A stretch of DNA of 64,000 nucleotides from Candidatus Eiseniibacteriota bacterium (GTDB taxonomy: Bacteria > Eisenbacteria > RBG-16-71-46 > CAZAMP01). The first letter of the stretch is position 1. Every line of letters starts with the position of its first letter. This document shows, one piece after another, positions 1-9,068 of this stretch. Made by a program: the position numbers and the translations under genes. The stretch lies in NCBI GenBank assembly GCA_965224245.1, contig OZ245046.1, forward strand, positions 2,016,001 to 2,080,000, read 5' to 3'. The notes below the pieces were generated by a model that searched no databases, was not told where the DNA came from, and worked only from the letters and a program-made list of their open reading frames with translations.

Positions 1-2600
1 ATCGGGCTCTGGAACTCCCCGCGCATCTTGTACCGGGTCACGTGCGTGTCCGAGCTGAGCCGGAAGACGGTGGCCTTGTTGTCGTAGATCTCGGGCTCGG
101 GGTAGTTGCCGAGCAGCGGGTCCAGCTGGCCCGTGGACTCGTCGACGGTGCCGGTGAGCGTGGCGTCGGGCCACGCATCGATCGTCACGTCCGGGACCCC
201 CAGGATGTTCCTCCGATACCTGATGTCGAACTCGTCCGGAGCGAACGGACGCAGCTGGGGGAAGTGCAACAGACCGGTGGACTCGTTCAGGAGGTCGACG
301 TCCACCTCGTTGTCGTGGCCGGGAAGGGGCTGGACCCCCTCCAGGCGCTGCACGTCGAGACCCAGCATCTGAAGGTAGGGTGTACCCTCGAAGTTCGGCG
401 TCGCCGCCACGCCGGTCTGCTGATCCCATACGATGTCGAGGTCCAGGTCGGAGATGTTCCGTCCGCGGATGTTGTAGATGTTCTTGCACTCGAGCACCTG
501 CGTGGGACCCCACGGTCCGTTCTGCAGGTTCTCGACCCGCAGGATGTCGATCGGGGTCCCGATCATCTTGTAGGTGGGAATCCCACACGGCGCATCCGCC
601 AGATTCGCACTTCCGATCTGCTCGTTGCCCACGCCGTCCCCATCGATGTCACCGTTCTCTTCCAGCGTCTTGAACGACGCGCAGAGCAGCTCGATGTCGC
701 CAAGCGGCTGGGTCAGCTCGATCACGAGTCCCCGGAAACGGAAGGTCCCGAGATCGGGGTGCACGACGAACTCGCGATCGCGAACAAGCTCGGAGACCTT
801 GTACACCTTGTAGTCCGACAGGTCGTCGAACGTGTCGTCGCACCGGGCCGGGGCACCGTCGCATGCGCACGGCGGCAATCCCGTCGGCGTGACGTATGCG
901 TCGATGGTGGCCTGTTCGGTGTCGGTCAGTCCCGACTGGTCGTCGCGGTACAGCCGGATGCTGCTGGGGTCGATGTTCACCGGGAACAGGAACTCGCCGG
1001 TGTACGTCTCCTGCATGCCCTGGCCGTTCACGTACGTGACCGACCCGTTGACCAGGCGGTTCGGATCGTCGAGGAAGTAGTAGCGGCGGCGGATGTAGTT
1101 CCCCGAGTCGATGTCGTCGATGCGCGTCGAGGACGACGTCGTGCTGGGGACGCTGCGCGTGGACGTCTCGCTCTCCTGCTTCGAGGCGATGGCCGAGACC
1201 TTCACCGGCCCCAGGCGTGCCTCGGAGCTGATCCCGAAGAGCCCCTCGTGACGCCCCCCGTACGAGACGTAACGAGTACCCGGCAGCGACAGGCTGGTGT
1301 TCCCCAGATTCACCCGCTGAATGATCTCGTCCTCGTAGCCCTCGTAGCGGATCTTGATGCGGTTCTCGAGGCTCGTCTCCGCCTCGGAGTTCTGGTCGAT
1401 GTCGATGAATACCTTGTCACCGATCGATCCCTGGAGCTTCAGGAACAGGTTCTGGCGCATGTCCAGGTCGGGGAACTTGGACTCGCTGGAGAGCGCGGTC
1501 GTCCGGTTGTACGGGCGCCACTCGCTGGTGCCCGAGATGGAGATGGTCTCGCTGCCCGAGACCGAGAGCGTGGACTGCTCGTCTCCGAAGATCGAGTGCA
1601 GGGCGCCCGGCATCGCCGGCAGCTTGATGTCGAAGATGCCGCCGGCCTGCGCCCCCTCCTCCCCGCGGCCGAGCATGCGCTTGCCGAGCCCATCCCACTG
1701 CGACTTGAATCCGGCGCGAAGCTGGAGCGCGGTGAAGTGCTCGGGCGACAGCACGCGCGCCTGCCCGAACGACTCCTCGCGGAGCCGCTGGACCCGCCGG
1801 ATCTCACCGGTGGCCGTGTCCACCTCCAGCACGAACCGCTTGTGCGTGCTGGACCCGGCCAGGCTCCAGCGGGGGGGCACGAAGTACGAGTACTGAAGCG
1901 TGTCGGAGACGGTGACCGCGGTGAAGCCGGCCGCGTAGTAGATCGAGTCCTGAAGGGCGGAGTTTGCGTACGCGTAGAGCACCGCGGCGTCGAGTCCCTC
2001 GCGGTCCCACCACTGCCAGAGGCCCATGCCCTGGCCCCGCGGCCCGGCGACCGGGGTCTCGGGACCGGGACCGGCGCCGTCGACTCCGTCCGTTTCCGGG
2101 GGAACGAGCGGCTCGCCGGCCTCCGTGCGGTCGTCGGGCCCCGGCGCGTCGCCGGATGGGGCGGCGGGGGGGGGCTCGGTGGGCTCGGCCCGCTCGAGCG
2201 TGGCGCCGTCCGCGTCGACGGCTGGATCGGATGAGAGCGCCTCCGCCGGCCCGTCGCCCGAGGGCGCCGGAGCGGCGGTCTCGTCATCGGCCCCCGAGCC
2301 CTCCACCGGGGCGTCCCGGCGGACCTCCCCCGCGCCGTTCGAATCGGGGACCGCCACGCCCGCGGCGATCGGGTCCAGGGAGTCGGCGGGCGCTGCCGCC
2401 GTATCGGCGTCGGCCCGTGAGCTCTCGTGGGGAGTGGTTCCGATCCCCGGTGGCGCGGGAGCCGCGACGTCGTCGGCGACCTCGTCGGCGGCGTGGGGCG
2501 CGGGCGGACTCGGTCCCCCCGCCACGAGAGCGGCCAGGGCGACGATGGCAACGCGCGTGAGCATCCGGGGCCGGAGGGCACGTTGGAAGGTCGGCGTCAT
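1..2600 (-). CDS. sprA: SprA-like T9SS outer-membrane translocon (N-terminal part; continues past the left edge)
   Basis: Absent from the ORF track because it has no stop in the window. Manual minus-strand translation from ATG 2600 gives a signal peptide, a long acidic/Pro-rich linker, then LKLQGSIGDKVFIDIDQNSE..LENRIKIRYEGYEDEIIQRVNLGNTSLSLP..GLFGI..ASKQ and later KNIYNI, YLQMLGLD, GLLHFPQLRPF, all typical of SprA. Start codon uncertain. Confidence 0.85.
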   Translation of the reverse strand, partial: MTPTFQRALRPRMLTRVAIVALAALVAGGPSPPAPHAADEVADDVAAPAPPGIGTTPHESSRADADTAAAPADSLDPIAAGVAVPDSNGAGEVRRDAPVEGSGADDETAAPAPSGDGPAEALSSDPAVDADGATLERAEPTEPPPAAPSGDAPGPDDRTEAGEPLVPPETDGVDGAGPGPETPVAGPRGQGMGLWQWWDREGLDAAVLYAYANSALQDSIYYAAGFTAVTVSDTLQYSYFVPPRWSLAGSSTHKRFVLEVDTATGEIRRVQRLREESFGQARVLSPEHFTALQLRAGFKSQWDGLGKRMLGRGEEGAQAGGIFDIKLPAMPGALHSIFGDEQSTLSVSGSETISISGTSEWRPYNRTTALSSESKFPDLDMRQNLFLKLQGSIGDKVFIDIDQNSEAETSLENRIKIRYEGYEDEIIQRVNLGNTSLSLPGTRYVSYGGRHEGLFGISSEARLGPVKVSAIASKQESETSTRSVPSTTSSSTRIDDIDSGNYIRRRYYFLDDPNRLVNGSVTYVNGQGMQETYTGEFLFPVNIDPSSIRLYRDDQSGLTDTEQATIDAYVTPTGLPPCACDGAPARCDDTFDDLSDYKVYKVSELVRDREFVVHPDLGTFRFRGLVIELTQPLGDIELLCASFKTLEENGDIDGDGVGNEQIGSANLADAPCGIPTYKMIGTPIDILRVENLQNGPWGPTQVLECKNIYNIRGRNISDLDLDIVWDQQTGVAATPNFEGTPYLQMLGLDVQRLEGVQPLPGHDNEVDVDLLNESTGLLHFPQLRPFAPDEFDIRYRRNILGVPDVTIDAWPDATLTGTVDESTGQLDPLLGNYPEPEIYDNKATVFRLSSDTHVTRYKMRGEFQSP

Positions 2601-2936
2601 CCTCACTCGACGGGGGTTGATGTGGTCGTGCCGACGGCGACGGCATCGATGTCGGCGGCGGCCTCGATGTCAGCGGCTGCACCGACCGCCGGGCCACCTG
2701 CGACGAGGGTGGCGGGCTGCTGTTCACCGACATCCTGCTCGTGTATAAACACACGACTCGTCGGATTGCTGCACCAAAATCGCGGGCTCACGCCGCCCAT
2801 GGGAACTCCCCCGCGTCCGAGCCGTGTCTTATCGGGTACGCCGAGCGCTTCCGGTGCTCGGTTGCGGGAGCAGCCCCGAGGGGGGCTCACCCATCCGGGC
2901 GACGTCCGTCGAGTCAAGTCCAACGGAGAAAACCAC

Positions 2937-4337
2937 TTGATCCTGCAAAGGTACACACTCCGCGAGATGATTTCCCCCTTTTTTCTGGGGTTCTCGTTCG
3001 TGACCTTTCTCCTGATGATGGAGCTGCTGCTGGACTACCTCGAGCTGATCCTCGACAAGGGCGTGCCCGTGTTCACGGTCGCGAAGCTCTTCGTCCTGGC
3101 GCTCGGCTGGATGCTGGCCCTCTCGATCCCGTGCGGCGTGCTCGTGGGCACGCTGATGACGTTCGGTCGCATGAGCCAGGACAACGAGATTCTGGCCATG
3201 CGGAGCTCGGGGGTCTCGGTCCTCACCCTGATGAAGCCGGCGTTCGCGTGGGGCCTCGGCTGGACCCTCTTCCTGATGCTCTTCAACAACATCGTCCTGC
3301 CCTGGAGCAATCACGAGTTCTCGCGGCTGCTCCTCGAGGTGAACCGCAAGCGGCCCACCGCCGAGCTCGACGAGGGGGTCTTCATCGAGGCGTTCGACGG
3401 GCACCGGATCCTGTTCGACCGCCTCAATCCCAAGACCGGCGAGATCCAGGGCATCAAGATCCTCGACTTCCAGAAGGGACGCCGCCCCACGACCACGGTC
3501 GCGGACGCCGGCCGGCTGTTCTACGACGGTGAGCGCGACATGCTGATCCTCGAGCTGGAGGACGGCGAGGTCTACACCGTGCCCTCCGACGCGGTCGAGG
3601 CGGCCTCGCTCCGGCGCACCGAGTTCGCCCAGCATCTCATCCGCATCGGCGGCGAGGGTCAGGGCCCGTTCCGGCCCCGCCTGCGGCGCGGGCAACGCGA
3701 GATGAGCGCGTTTCAGCTCCGTGACGAGATCGCCGCCACCCGGGCCAAGCGCGACACGCTCCTGGCCGAGCAGGACGAGAAGCTCCAGGTGCTCGGCTAC
3801 TCGGGATACGCCGAGCTGGCGGCGTTCGTGGAGACCCCCCAGCCCTGGTACGAGCGGCTGGCGGAGGCGTTCCGGGGCGGCGGGCGCCCGCATCCGCCAC
3901 CCGAGCGTCGCTTCGTCGGCCCGCCCGACGCCCGTCTGGTCGAGAGCTACAAGCTCACGAAGCTCCAGGTGGAGTCGTTCGACAAGCAGATCAACCAGCT
4001 CGAGGTCGAGCTCCACAAGAAGTTCTCGCTCTCGCTGGCCTGCCTCGTCTTCGTGCTCCTCGGTGCCCCGCTCGGGATCGTCGTGCGCCGCGGCGGCATG
4101 CGGGCGGGCGTCTGGAGCATCGGATTCCTGATCTTCTACTACATCTGCCTGATCGGCGGGGAGCAGCTCGCCGATCGTCGCCTCCTGCGGCCGGCCATCA
4201 GCATGTGGCTGGCCAACGCGGTCCTGGGCACGATCGGGCTGGTTCTGGTGGCCAACGTGCTCGGCCTCCGGCACCGCCGCTCGACCCCCCGTTCCGTCGG
4301 GCACCCGCGCCCGCACGAGGAGATCCTGGCCGGATGA
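2937..4337 (+). CDS. lptF: LPS export permease LptF
   Basis: TTG 2937 after GGAG. MILQRYTLREM..FGRMSQDNEILAMRSSGVS..ELHKKFSLSLACLVF..LG. ATGA overlap with lptG. Confidence 0.88.
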   Translation: MILQRYTLREMISPFFLGFSFVTFLLMMELLLDYLELILDKGVPVFTVAKLFVLALGWMLALSIPCGVLVGTLMTFGRMSQDNEILAMRSSGVSVLTLMKPAFAWGLGWTLFLMLFNNIVLPWSNHEFSRLLLEVNRKRPTAELDEGVFIEAFDGHRILFDRLNPKTGEIQGIKILDFQKGRRPTTTVADAGRLFYDGERDMLILELEDGEVYTVPSDAVEAASLRRTEFAQHLIRIGGEGQGPFRPRLRRGQREMSAFQLRDEIAATRAKRDTLLAEQDEKLQVLGYSGYAELAAFVETPQPWYERLAEAFRGGGRPHPPPERRFVGPPDARLVESYKLTKLQVESFDKQINQLEVELHKKFSLSLACLVFVLLGAPLGIVVRRGGMRAGVWSIGFLIFYYICLIGGEQLADRRLLRPAISMWLANAVLGTIGLVLVANVLGLRHRRSTPRSVGHPRPHEEILAG

Positions 4338-5416
4338 TCCGAACGCTGGACCGATACGTCATGGTCGAGTTCCTGAAGTACCTGACCCTGGCGATGTGCC
4401 TGTTCATCGGGCTGTTCATCATCGTGGATCTCTTCGAGAAGCTCTCCAAGTTCGTGGACAACACGGCCAGCATCACCGACATCGCGGCGTTCTACGCGTA
4501 CTCGATCCCGTACACGGTCGTGCTCACGATGCCGATGGCGATGCTCCTGGCCAGCCTCATGCTGATCGGTCAGCTCGGGCGCACCGGCGAGCTGGTCGCC
4601 ATGCTCTCGGCCGGCGTGAGCTTCCTCCGGATCCTGTCCCCGGTGCTGGTGTTGTCGGGGCTGTTGAGCGTGGGCAACTTCGCGCTGGCCGAGTGGGTCA
4701 TGCCCGATGCGCTGGAGAAGAAGGACGTCACGCTCAACGAGAAGATCCGCGGCAAGAGCGGCGACGCGGGGAGCCGCAAGCGCAACTTCACGTACATGGG
4801 ACGCGGCGATCGCCTCTACTGGATCTCGACCGTCGACCCGGCGCGCAAGATCCTGCGTGACGTCGTGGTGCAGACGTTCGACGAGGAGCGGCGTGTGACC
4901 GAACGCATCGACGCCCGCGAGGCCACGTTCGTGGACCCGGCGTGGGTGTTCCGCTCGGGCTACCTGCGCTCGGGCATGCCCGACGCCGAGCACGTGGTTC
5001 CGTTCAAGCGGCTCTGGGTCACCACCATCCCCGAGCGTCCGGAGGACTTCATGTCGAAGGAGCCCGACCCGATGAACATGGGGCGGGCGGCGCTCGGTCG
5101 GTACATCGATCGACTGAAGGAAGCGCGGGCGCGAACGCGCAAGCTCGAGGTGAACTATCACCTCAAGCTGGCTTACCCGCTGATCAACTTCATCATCGTG
5201 CTCCTGGGCGCGTCGCTCTCGGTGCGAATCCGACGAACCGGGTGGGCGCTCGGGCTGGGCCTGTCGATGTTCATCGGGTTCGCGTACTACGCGTTCATCC
5301 GCTTCGGACAGGCCATGGGATTCTCGGGTGCGATCCCGCCGCTTCTGGCCGCGTGGCTGGGGAACATCGTGTTCCTCGGCGTGGCGGTGACGTTTCAGGT
5401 GCGCGCGAACCGTTGA
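4334..5416 (+). CDS. lptG: LPS export permease LptG
   Basis: MIRTLDRYV..GELVAMLSAGVS..KLAYPL..PPLLAAWLGN; tandem with lptF. Confidence 0.88.
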   Translation: MIRTLDRYVMVEFLKYLTLAMCLFIGLFIIVDLFEKLSKFVDNTASITDIAAFYAYSIPYTVVLTMPMAMLLASLMLIGQLGRTGELVAMLSAGVSFLRILSPVLVLSGLLSVGNFALAEWVMPDALEKKDVTLNEKIRGKSGDAGSRKRNFTYMGRGDRLYWISTVDPARKILRDVVVQTFDEERRVTERIDAREATFVDPAWVFRSGYLRSGMPDAEHVVPFKRLWVTTIPERPEDFMSKEPDPMNMGRAALGRYIDRLKEARARTRKLEVNYHLKLAYPLINFIIVLLGASLSVRIRRTGWALGLGLSMFIGFAYYAFIRFGQAMGFSGAIPPLLAAWLGNIVFLGVAVTFQVRANR

Positions 5417-5506
5417 CGTGAGCGGAGCCCGGGGGGAGCGGAGCGGGACGGGGGATCGCACGGCGGCGACGAGCGGGCGCCGCCGCCGGCGAGATCCACG
5501 AGAGGC

Positions 5507-5725
5507 CTACAGATCCTGCGGACGAAGCGTCTTGCGCTTGTTCGCGGTGGCGCGACCCTCGGCGTTCTTGATCGCGTTGCGGACGTGGGCGTCCAGGGCC
5601 GCGTAGAACTCGCTCGAGACGTTGCACTTCTTGACTGCGGCCTTCGTGCGCGACTTCGAGATGATCAGTTCCATCGGCTTCCGCGCCGACGACTTGCGCG
5701 TGCTCTTCTTCTTGGCCTTCGCCAT
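5507..5725 (-). CDS. Bacterial histone-fold protein (72 aa, alpha3-truncated, Bd0055/face-to-face-like) with a basic N-terminal tail
   Basis: Last 72 aa of ORF 5507..6283. SD AAGGAG precedes ATG 5725. Core LIISKSRTKAAVKKCNVSSEFYAALDAHVRNAIKNAEGRATANKRKTLRPQDL carries the histone L2-alpha3 signature RKT-x-x-x-x-D. Confidence 0.88.
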   Translation of the reverse strand: MAKAKKKSTRKSSARKPMELIISKSRTKAAVKKCNVSSEFYAALDAHVRNAIKNAEGRATANKRKTLRPQDL

Positions 5726-5818
5726 GGAGTCTCTCTCCTTCGCTGGTGGGGACTCGGAGCGTTGACGCTCCTCGCGCGCCGCGGGCAGCGAACGCACGTG
5801 TTTACACGAACGGTCCGC

Positions 5819-5847
5819 AATATCGGTACCCGCCGGGGGGGTGTCAA
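5819..5847 (-). promoter_or_regulatory. Sigma70-type promoter of the histone gene
   Basis: TTGACA (5847-5842), 17 nt spacer, GATATT (5824-5819). Confidence 0.6.
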
Positions 5848-5946
5848 CGAAAAAGCGCGGGCCCGGAGCGCGATTCGGGGCCGATTCCGGCCTTCCCGGA
5901 GCGATTCCGCCCCGACGGCGCCGACCGGGGCGACCCCTCGCGGAGC

Positions 5947-7290
<1,344 letters not shown>

Positions 7291-7314: not shown

Positions 7315-8511
7315 TCAGAAGCGGGAGATGCCCTCCGGCGAATCCGGCTGGCGTGGCTTGTTCACTACCGCATCCGTTCCGGCTCCGTCCACCGGTTTTT
7401 CCTCGGACTCCGACTCGAACTTGCCCCAGCTGGCGTCGGACGCCGAGTGGATCCCCTCCACCCGCAGCTGGAACTCGGTCGGGTTCGACGCATGCCGGAT
7501 CGCCCCGTCCAGCGTGACCAGGTTCTTCCGGTAGAGCTGCATCAGCGACTGGTCGAACGTCTGCATCCCGTAGGTGTTGGATCCCTCCTGGATCGCCTGG
7601 GACAGCATGACCGTCTTGTCGGGATCGATGATCATCTCCTTGACCGCGTCGCTGATGATCATGACCTCCACCGCCGGCACGCGAGAGATCCCATCGGCGC
7701 GCGGAACCAGACGGAGGGTGATGATGGCCTTCAGGTTCGCGGCCAGGAGAAACCGGATCTCGGAGTGCTGGTGGGGCGGGTAGAACGACAGGATGCGGTT
7801 GATCGTCTGCGGGGCGTTCGCGGTGTGGAGCGTGCTCAGAACGAGGTGCCCCGTGTCGGCCGCCATCAGGGCCACCCGCATGGTCTCGGTGTCGCGGATC
7901 TCGCCCAGGAGGATCACGTCGGGATCCTGCCGCAGGATGTGCTTGAGACCGGCCACGTAGCTGTCGGTGTCGAGCCCCACCTCGCGCTGGGAGATGATGC
8001 TCTTCTGATCGCTGTGGAGGAACTCGACGGGGTCCTCGATCGTGATGACGTTCCGCGCCTCGCGCCGGTTGATGGCGTCGATCATCGAGGCCAGGGTCGT
8101 GGACTTTCCGCTTCCCACGGTGCCGGTGACCAGGATCAGGCCGCGCGGCCGCGTGGTGAGCTCCAGCACGATGTCCGGTAGATTGAGCTGCTCGAACCGG
8201 GGGATCTCCAGCGGCACGGTCCGGATCGCACCCGCGATCGTCCCGCGCTGGTAGTAGAGGTTCGCGCGGAAGCGGGCGACGCCCTGGAGCCCGAACGCGA
8301 AGTCGACCTCGCGGTTCGTGCGCAGCTCCTCGCTCTGCTCGGGGGTCATGATCTGCGCCGCCAGGGACTCCAGATCGGCCGGTCCCAGAGGCTGCAGGTC
8401 CAGGTAGTGGAGCTCACCGTCGACTCGAAACGCAGGCGGGCTCCCGTACTTGACGTGCAGGTCGGAGGCCCGTCGTTCGATCATCTCTTGCAGGATGCGC
8501 TGGATATCCAT
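7315..8511 (-). CDS. pilT: PilT/PilU-family type IV pilus retraction ATPase
   Basis: ASDLH, Walker A GTVGSGKST, TIEDPVE, LRQDPDVILLGEIRD, TGHLVLSTLH, GMQTFDQ. Confidence 0.88.
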   Translation of the reverse strand: MDIQRILQEMIERRASDLHVKYGSPPAFRVDGELHYLDLQPLGPADLESLAAQIMTPEQSEELRTNREVDFAFGLQGVARFRANLYYQRGTIAGAIRTVPLEIPRFEQLNLPDIVLELTTRPRGLILVTGTVGSGKSTTLASMIDAINRREARNVITIEDPVEFLHSDQKSIISQREVGLDTDSYVAGLKHILRQDPDVILLGEIRDTETMRVALMAADTGHLVLSTLHTANAPQTINRILSFYPPHQHSEIRFLLAANLKAIITLRLVPRADGISRVPAVEVMIISDAVKEMIIDPDKTVMLSQAIQEGSNTYGMQTFDQSLMQLYRKNLVTLDGAIRHASNPTEFQLRVEGIHSASDASWGKFESESEEKPVDGAGTDAVVNKPRQPDSPEGISRF

Positions 8512-8582
8512 GGAGCCACGTCCTCGCGGGTTCGTCGACCGAAGGGAAAGTCACCCTACGATGATCGGACGTGGCCCCCCGA

Positions 8583-9068
<486 letters not shown>

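Follow-up and report, generated by a model that had tools for sequence, protein, structure and literature searches.

Does a short, basic gene on the minus strand of the window (the whole 64,000-nucleotide stretch of DNA analyzed here) encode a chromatin protein, of what type, and is its N-terminal tail exceptional? A first-pass annotation had proposed a bacterial histone with its own promoter and an unusual tail recalling modification sites of eukaryotic H3. Face-to-face (FtF) histones are a recently recognized bacterial mode of DNA packaging. To our knowledge, HLp is the only bacterial FtF histone that has been characterized biochemically.

Gene structure and expression signals

The histone coding sequence lies at 5507..5725 (minus strand), with a TAG stop at 5507–5509, as given by translation of the window. 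Its 72-aa product consists of residues 1–17, MAKAKKKSTRKSSARKP (5675..5725, minus strand), and a 55-residue domain, codons 18–72 (5510..5674, minus strand), with the C-terminal sequence RKTLRPQDL. The frame is the 3′ end of a mechanically called 258-aa GTG ORF at 5507..6283 (minus strand). This longer ORF overlaps accC (5947..7290, minus strand) in a different frame and was rejected as spurious; translation and the frame overlap confirm the earlier description of a 72-aa gene hidden at its end.

The annotated Shine-Dalgarno sequence AAGGAG was found at 5735..5740 (minus strand), 9 nt 5′ of the ATG, and (A)GGAG occurs at the equivalent place in most of 10 same-class loci, as judged by eye with no tool count. 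Scanning 5300..6100 for promoters returned a single sigma-70-type site at 5819..5847 (minus strand), TTGACA (5847..5842) and GATATT (5824..5819) separated by 17 nt, with a match of 10/12. Fifty shuffles gave a mean of 0.0 sites, and the promoter proposed earlier is the only site in this region. Its position implies a 5′ UTR of ~85–90 nt. A perfect TTGACA box lies 5′ of the histone gene in 7 of 10 same-class loci (window counted), which supports a conserved dedicated promoter.

The window leader also contains a perfect 6-bp hairpin, GGAGCG-TCAA-CGCTCC, ~30 nt 5′ of the ATG. In four same-class loci of family f7 (L083, L085, L086, and L088), the leader after the −10 box is near-identical, roughly 'TTCGCCGGAAATCAAGG'. 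This shared stretch points to a conserved leader element; the leader in the window has a different sequence. No Rfam match was found in 5380..5960 at E ≤ 1.

The histone gene is convergent with lptG, which ends at 5416, and has the same direction as accB-accC upstream. The minus strand upstream carries accB (8583..9068), a gene for a PilT-type twitching ATPase (7315..8511), and accC; it is unusual for a pilT to lie between accB and accC (7315..9068, minus strand). On the plus strand, the mechanical ORFs for lptF (2427..4337) and lptG (4205..5416) start far 5′ of their likely true starts, and the LptG protein in the database, of 360 aa, aligns from around position 4331 or 4334.

A terminator scan returned no sites, either between accC and the histone gene or 3′ of the histone gene. 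Folding gave a G+C-rich candidate hairpin (5456..5492, minus strand) in the interval that separates the histone stop codon from the convergent lptG. It folds no better than shuffles (z −1.0; 31 of 200 shuffles equal), has no T run, and is no evidence of a terminator. The proposal that the gene is monocistronic is thus borne out in part: the gene has its own promoter and converges on lptG, but it shares its direction with accB-accC and no terminator was found by the scan. GC3 of the histone gene (0.917) equals that of lptG, accC, pilT, and accB, and its codon use is native to the genome. Of three sequencing runs found for 5400–5900, two cover the stretch and none is recorded as RNA.

Homologs and conservation

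In a search of a 5.8-billion-protein collection, 881 of 883 scored candidates had E ≤ 0.01. Homologs among the matches listed (n = 120) are 59–85% identical to the query, and their source labels are 'histone H3/H4,' 'DUF1931 domain-containing,' or hypothetical. A profile search of 50%-identity representatives gave 672 clusters at E ≤ 0.001, 104 of them at E ≤ 1e-10. At least 509 stretches in a one-genome-per-species collection encode a relative, and the genome that holds the window has a single histone copy. The 72-aa ORF is a real, conserved gene.

No Pfam or NCBIfam family matched the protein at E ≤ 10, and its assignment to a family is therefore based on PDB relatives, motifs, and models. 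A DUF1931 pseudodimer (Aq_328/TTHA1568 type) was ruled out by the single 55-residue fold and the empty Pfam result at that threshold. The 'DUF1931 domain-containing' label on homologs appears to be a loose name.

The fold domain is 65–85% identical across MAGs labeled Planctomycetota, Myxococcota, Methylomirabilota, Latescibacterota, and Eisenbacteria, and four sets of identical core sequences span differently labeled groups. Such cross-phylum identity could reflect very strong constraint, transfer, or mislabeled bins.

Domain architecture varies among the representatives. Many of 114–130 aa contain two tandem FtF-type folds (P0281, P0284, P0285, P0289, P0292, P0309, P0316, P0319, and others). 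Each of these folds has its own R-x3-N-x-R-x-T-x4-D pattern, which points to single-chain FtF-type pseudodimers, unlike DUF1931 pseudodimers. A few relatives have long extra segments, including P0277 (160 aa), P0315 (123 aa), and P0335 (260 aa). In one extended relative, a tailed histone is followed by an acidic, coiled-coil-looking C-terminal extension of ~80 residues, and P0335 has two folds at its C-terminus after a long N-terminal region.

Histone fold

The best match in a PDB sequence search was 9f2c_A (HTkC; E 4.7e-4), followed by 9qt0 (HLp; E 0.58). Entry 9F2C is the archaeal face-to-face histone HTkC (bioRxiv 10.64898/2025.12.06.692711), and entries 9QT0-2 are the Leptospira perolatii histone HLp (PMC12701072), as given in the available text of these sources. 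An AF2 model built from a 50-sequence alignment has a mean pLDDT of 79.9, with values of 83–95 over residues 21–72 and 50–57 over residues 1–20. Its predicted helices are alpha1 (24–30), alpha2 (38–61; 24 residues), and a 3-residue helical turn at 69–71 that corresponds to alpha3. Alpha3 histones are defined by a shortened alpha2 and a truncated alpha3 (Schwab et al. 2024, PMC11390915, available text), and the model has the short alpha2 and, at three residues, an alpha3 within the 3–4 that mark the alpha3-truncated type.

Foldseek ranks 1–8 are all HTkC, HLp, and HBb/Bd0055 chains (including 9f2c, 9qt1, and 9ezz) at probability 1.00, with target-normalized TM-scores (TMt) of 0.77–0.87 and rmsd of 1.2–2.2 Å. 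Given so short a domain, their E-values (2.7e-3 to 4.9e-2) exceed the 0.001 mark of the tool. HTkC aligns with TMt 0.84, rmsd 1.2, and 38% identity; HLp with TMt 0.86–0.87, rmsd 1.2–1.3, and 30% identity; and HBb with TMt 0.77–0.81 and 24% identity. Eukaryotic histone-fold proteins appear beyond rank 8. The R-x-T-x4-D motif is present as R64, T66, and D71 and is invariant in 50 sequences. This motif, the RD clamp, is described as structuring loop 2 and contacting DNA in alpha3-truncated histones (Schwab et al. 2024, PMC11390915, in part).

Judged by sequence and modeled structure, the protein is an alpha3-truncated prokaryotic histone of the FtF type. The comparison with known histones that had been suggested thus returned histone folds at its top ranks, in agreement with the alpha3-truncated fold read from the sequence.

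Face-to-face tetramer and dimer types

The first reading had matched the protein to both the Bd0055/HBb and the FtF (HLp) patterns. FtF histones are predicted to form a torus-shaped tetramer (Schwab et al. 2024, PMC11390915). In the available text of that source, the most conserved residues of the FtF profile are R48, N52, R54, T56, and D61, and R48 and N52 make dimer-dimer contacts and are missing in bacterial dimers. The spacing of R58, N62, R64, T66, and D71 in the window protein is that of FtF HMM positions 48, 52, 54, 56, and 61. The signature R58-x3-N62-x-R64-x-T66-x4-D71 is complete and invariant in 50 aligned homologs, as is K65, and the pattern R-x3-N-x-R-x-T-x4-D occurs in most of 150 listed representatives.

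R58 aligns with HTkC R45 in a HMMER alignment to the PDB sequence, and change of R45 to alanine is reported to abolish the HTkC tetramer (bioRxiv 10.64898/2025.12.06.692711, in part). In a HMMER pairwise alignment at E 0.58, R58, N62, and R64 align with HLp R49, N53, and R55, which are named as tetramer-interface residues in the available text of PMC12701072.

A four-copy model of residues 17–72 gave an ipSAE of 0.90 in three of three runs and 0.00 for the best of three controls, with partner pLDDT ≥ 93 and ≥ 98% of contacts common to the runs. When the tool was calibrated, with two copies and not four, 20 of 30 proteins solved as pairs passed the mark, as did 1 of 23 solved as single chains. 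Like complexes (the HTkC and HLp tetramers) have been solved, so the four-copy score may be memory. In this model, the scored chain contacts its handshake partner over residues 19–72, in line with the handshake dimer expected earlier, and a chain of the second dimer at residues 57–58, 61–62, 64, and 68–71. As contacts are reported for one chain, we infer a closed ring rather than an open tetramer. Both the dimer and the tetramer are predictions of the models.

These results bear on whether the protein is instead a 'bacterial dimer' histone of the Bd0055/HBb type, which would stay a dimer and bend or coat DNA with no tetramer wrapping. HBb chains are within the top eight fold matches (TMt as above), and the full RKT motif is present (R64, K65, and T66). 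This motif is described for bacterial dimers and nucleosomal histones, and the FtF profile is described as having no strongly conserved basic residue at its middle position (PMC11390915, available text). The dimer reading nevertheless conflicts with the invariant R58 and N62, the counterparts of residues that bacterial dimers are said to lack, and with the confident dimer-dimer contact in the four-copy model. Identity is also higher to HTkC (38%) and HLp (30%) than to HBb (24%), and HBb is not among the PDB sequence matches at E ≤ 10. We regard the dimer reading as very improbable. Given that the R-x3-N residues are present and invariant, the histone is, by sequence and model, of the face-to-face tetramer type; the FtF half of the earlier match stands, and the Bd0055/HBb half was dropped.

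The N-terminal tail

The tail contains 6 K, 2 R, and 4 S/T in 17 residues, exactly as counted earlier, has a net charge of +8, and is predicted to be disordered from pLDDT. The gene has an in-frame ATG at codon 18, and translation from Met18 would give a tail-less 55-aa histone and make the 'tail' an untranslated leader. Tail-less FtF histones of 52–58 aa are common among distant relatives. The homologs shown have A, V, or G in place of Met18, which therefore cannot be where translation starts in the family, and the MA(A/K)KKK start is conserved. The AAGGAG sequence precedes Met1 by 9 nt, and an open, basic, acid-free N-terminal extension is found in all 120 listed homologs. A start at Met18 is therefore highly improbable, and the tail, as read from sequence, is part of the protein, as had been proposed.

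The survey of tail conservation suggested earlier was run on the listed homologs. A basic segment precedes the fold in all 120; 117 were measured with the motif, and the other three are visibly tailed. Up to the LIISK motif, the median length is 17 residues (range 12–50), and some of the longest tails are over-extended gene calls. In 119 trimmed tails, no acidic residue was found among 2013 residues, the median charge is +7, and 109 tails start with MAA or MAK. Untrimmed tails are composed of K (31%), A (26%), R (9%), T (6%), and S (3.5%), among others. The listed homologs were ranked with a tail-containing query, which favors tailed proteins; distant representatives include many tail-less forms of 52–58 aa. 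Ser/Thr make up 24% of the window tail, vs a clade median of 8%.

Bacterial FtF histones are described as commonly bearing tails, most of them positively charged (Schwab et al. 2024, PMC11390915, available text). Together with the basic tail in all listed homologs, this makes the tail a family trait and not a peculiarity of this gene, and the claim that it is unusual was given up.

The likeness to H3 did not hold either. The H3 motif ARKS is found in 0 of 119 tails and is missing from the window tail too. RKS occurs in 2 of 119 tails and ARK in 44 of 119, mostly within MAARKK, and shuffles of the tail's own residues yield RKS and ARK together in 4% of cases. A search for SET-domain genes (PF00856) gave no match in the genome that holds the window; PF00856 is present in 3 of 41 relatives, none of which is a histone carrier. 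An H3-type tail with ARKS-type motifs and a SET writer was rejected on these counts, and the tail is not H3-like.

Host lineage and distribution

Named relatives of the adjacent LptG are from Candidatus Eisenbacteria (~40% identity) and Calditrichaeota, and several same-class genomes have histone rows identical to Candidatus Eisenbacteria rows. Both observations place the host in an FCB-type lineage, as the first-pass annotation had suggested.

The histone gene is present in 12 of 41 genomes in the sample of relatives (own genome counted). In the phylum sample, 18 of 201 genomes have a match, 15 strong (E ≤ 1e-29) and 3 weak; on these numbers, the lineage taken together can do without the protein. 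The histone was found in families f1, f2, f5, f7, f12, and f14 and was not found in f9 (0 of 87) or f8 (0 of 41) of this sample. HU/IHF-family genes (PF00216) occur in each of the 41 relatives; the histone is therefore no replacement for HU. The genome that holds the window has three PF00216 genes, and the histone thus need not be the main nucleoid protein.

LptG, LptF, AccC, AccB, and PilT were compared with 82 loci by tblastn. Of the 80 foreign loci, one (L054) has AccC close to the histone, as the window does; the gene neighborhood is thus not conserved.

A histone tree of 89 rows and 53 columns was poorly resolved, with 2 of 78 inner branches starred; locus L071, which has no motif-bearing ORF, was left out. 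The tree puts the window row among Planctomycetota-labeled rows, apart from nine other same-class rows. An AU test did not reject a single clade of 15 Eisenbacteria/same-class rows (p 0.096); this clade was defined once the tree was known. A tree joining the window row with a same-family relative was better than the free tree (p 0.739). A single origin of the histone within the lineage is not rejected by AU tests, and no horizontal transfer is claimed.

Predicted DNA binding and proposed mechanism

HLp residues S14, K15, K17, K21, and R59 are reported to carry 52% of the binding energy (PMC12701072, available text). They align with S25, R26, K28, K32, and R68 of the window protein in the pairwise alignment at E 0.58, and S25, R26, and K28 are invariant or nearly so in the 50-sequence alignment. 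The protein has a pI of 10.9; the tail carries a net charge of +8 and the fold one of +7. Wrapping of DNA, abundance, and tail function are extrapolated here from relatives.

We propose that two chains would form a histone handshake dimer and that two such dimers would associate into a closed tetramer, with contacts made by the last part of alpha2, by loop 2, and by the alpha3 stub (R58, N62, R64, and the C-terminus). On the pattern of HLp and HTkC, this tetramer would bind DNA with no sequence preference and wrap ~60 bp on its rim. With one disordered, +8 tail of 17 residues per chain, four tails would project from each tetramer. They would most likely add a non-specific electrostatic grip on wrapped or neighboring DNA, as AKK-type segments do in H1 or HU tails, and are unlikely to be a platform for an H3-like code. 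The histone would be expressed from its own strong promoter and ribosome-binding site and would work beside the three HU/IHF-family genes without replacing them. This explanation as a whole, an FtF histone that forms a tetramer on DNA with non-specific tails, its own promoter, and a place beside HU/IHF, is very probably right.

The histone fold might instead serve a non-packaging role: the protein could be a specific regulator, a small basic protein associated with RNA or ribosomes, or a factor needed only under certain conditions such as stress or stationary phase. The three HU/IHF-family genes kept in the genome and the small share of sampled phylum genomes with a match (18 of 201, 15 strong) would fit such a role, and not all histone-fold proteins need be global organizers (Schwab et al., PMC11390915, in part). 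The residues that HLp and HTkC use for DNA contact and for tetramer formation are conserved here, however, and the gene is present in one copy per genome with a consensus-like promoter. The unconserved neighborhood (accC near the gene in 1 of 80 loci) argues against a dedicated partner pathway. A non-packaging role has, in our estimate, little chance of being correct, and packaging by an FtF tetramer is preferred.

A further idea concerns what the tails might do in the FtF tetramer. The acid-free Lys/Ala tail could be a tunable arm of ~10 to 45 residues, and the four arms of a tetramer could reach linker or neighboring DNA for an H1-like bridging or condensing that is missing in tail-less archaeal FtF histones. 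Lys acetylation, or Ser/Thr phosphorylation in Ser-rich versions like that of the window, might then switch compaction; bacteria would in that case have evolved, on their own, an equivalent of histone-tail regulation. We consider this idea speculative and rather unlikely.

Significance

The locus encodes a chromatin protein of an already described FtF type, and its tail is typical of bacterial relatives. The current picture of bacterial histones is unchanged by it. It adds an FtF histone from a phylum not paired with histones in the searched literature, in which no paper pairing 'histone' and 'Eisenbacteria' was found. The locus extends one highly conserved tailed FtF clade into an FCB-type lineage labeled Candidatus Eisenbacteria, and in this Eisenbacteria-type lineage the histone coexists with HU/IHF. 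The 72-aa protein offers a compact test case for the role of bacterial histone tails.

Comparison with known systems

The tail composition of the clade resembles AKK/PAKK-type DNA-binding segments, such as the C-terminal domain of H1 and the tail of mycobacterial HupB/MDP1. Unlike those tails, the window segment is short and sits at the N-terminus of a histone fold, and it has no Pfam match.

HBb/Bd0055 of Bdellovibrio bacteriovorus (PDB 8FVX, 8CMP, and 9EZZ) is like the window protein in its alpha3-truncated fold, RKT motif, bacterial origin, and highly basic character. In the available text of PMC11390915, HBb is described as having no R-x3-N dimer-dimer residues and no assembly beyond dimers, whereas the window protein has these residues and models as a tetramer.

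HTkC of Thermococcus kodakarensis (PDB 9F2C) is the top PDB match by both sequence and fold. Both proteins have the RKT-x4 C-terminal motif, and HTkC R45 corresponds to R58 of the window protein. In contrast, HTkC is tail-less (59 aa), has a loop 1 longer by four residues, and has E49 at the place of N62 in the window protein; its host is an archaeon that also has nucleosomal histones.

HLp (PDB 9QT0, 9QT1, and 9QT2) has a weak sequence match to the window histone (E 0.58). Leptospira is reported to be without HU and Dps (PMC12701072, available text), whereas the window genome has three HU/IHF genes. The hlp gene has SMC and MAP as neighbors, and the window histone gene has lptG and accC. By alignment, HLp has ~10 residues before the fold, the first six of which are described as invisible in crystals (PMC12701072, in part), while the window tail has 17 residues and a charge of +8 and those of close homologs reach ~45. 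HLp and the window histone are alike in being bacterial, in having a single alpha3-truncated fold preceded by an N-terminal extension, which is short in HLp, and in the RD clamp, where HLp R55-D62 corresponds to R64-D71 of the window protein.
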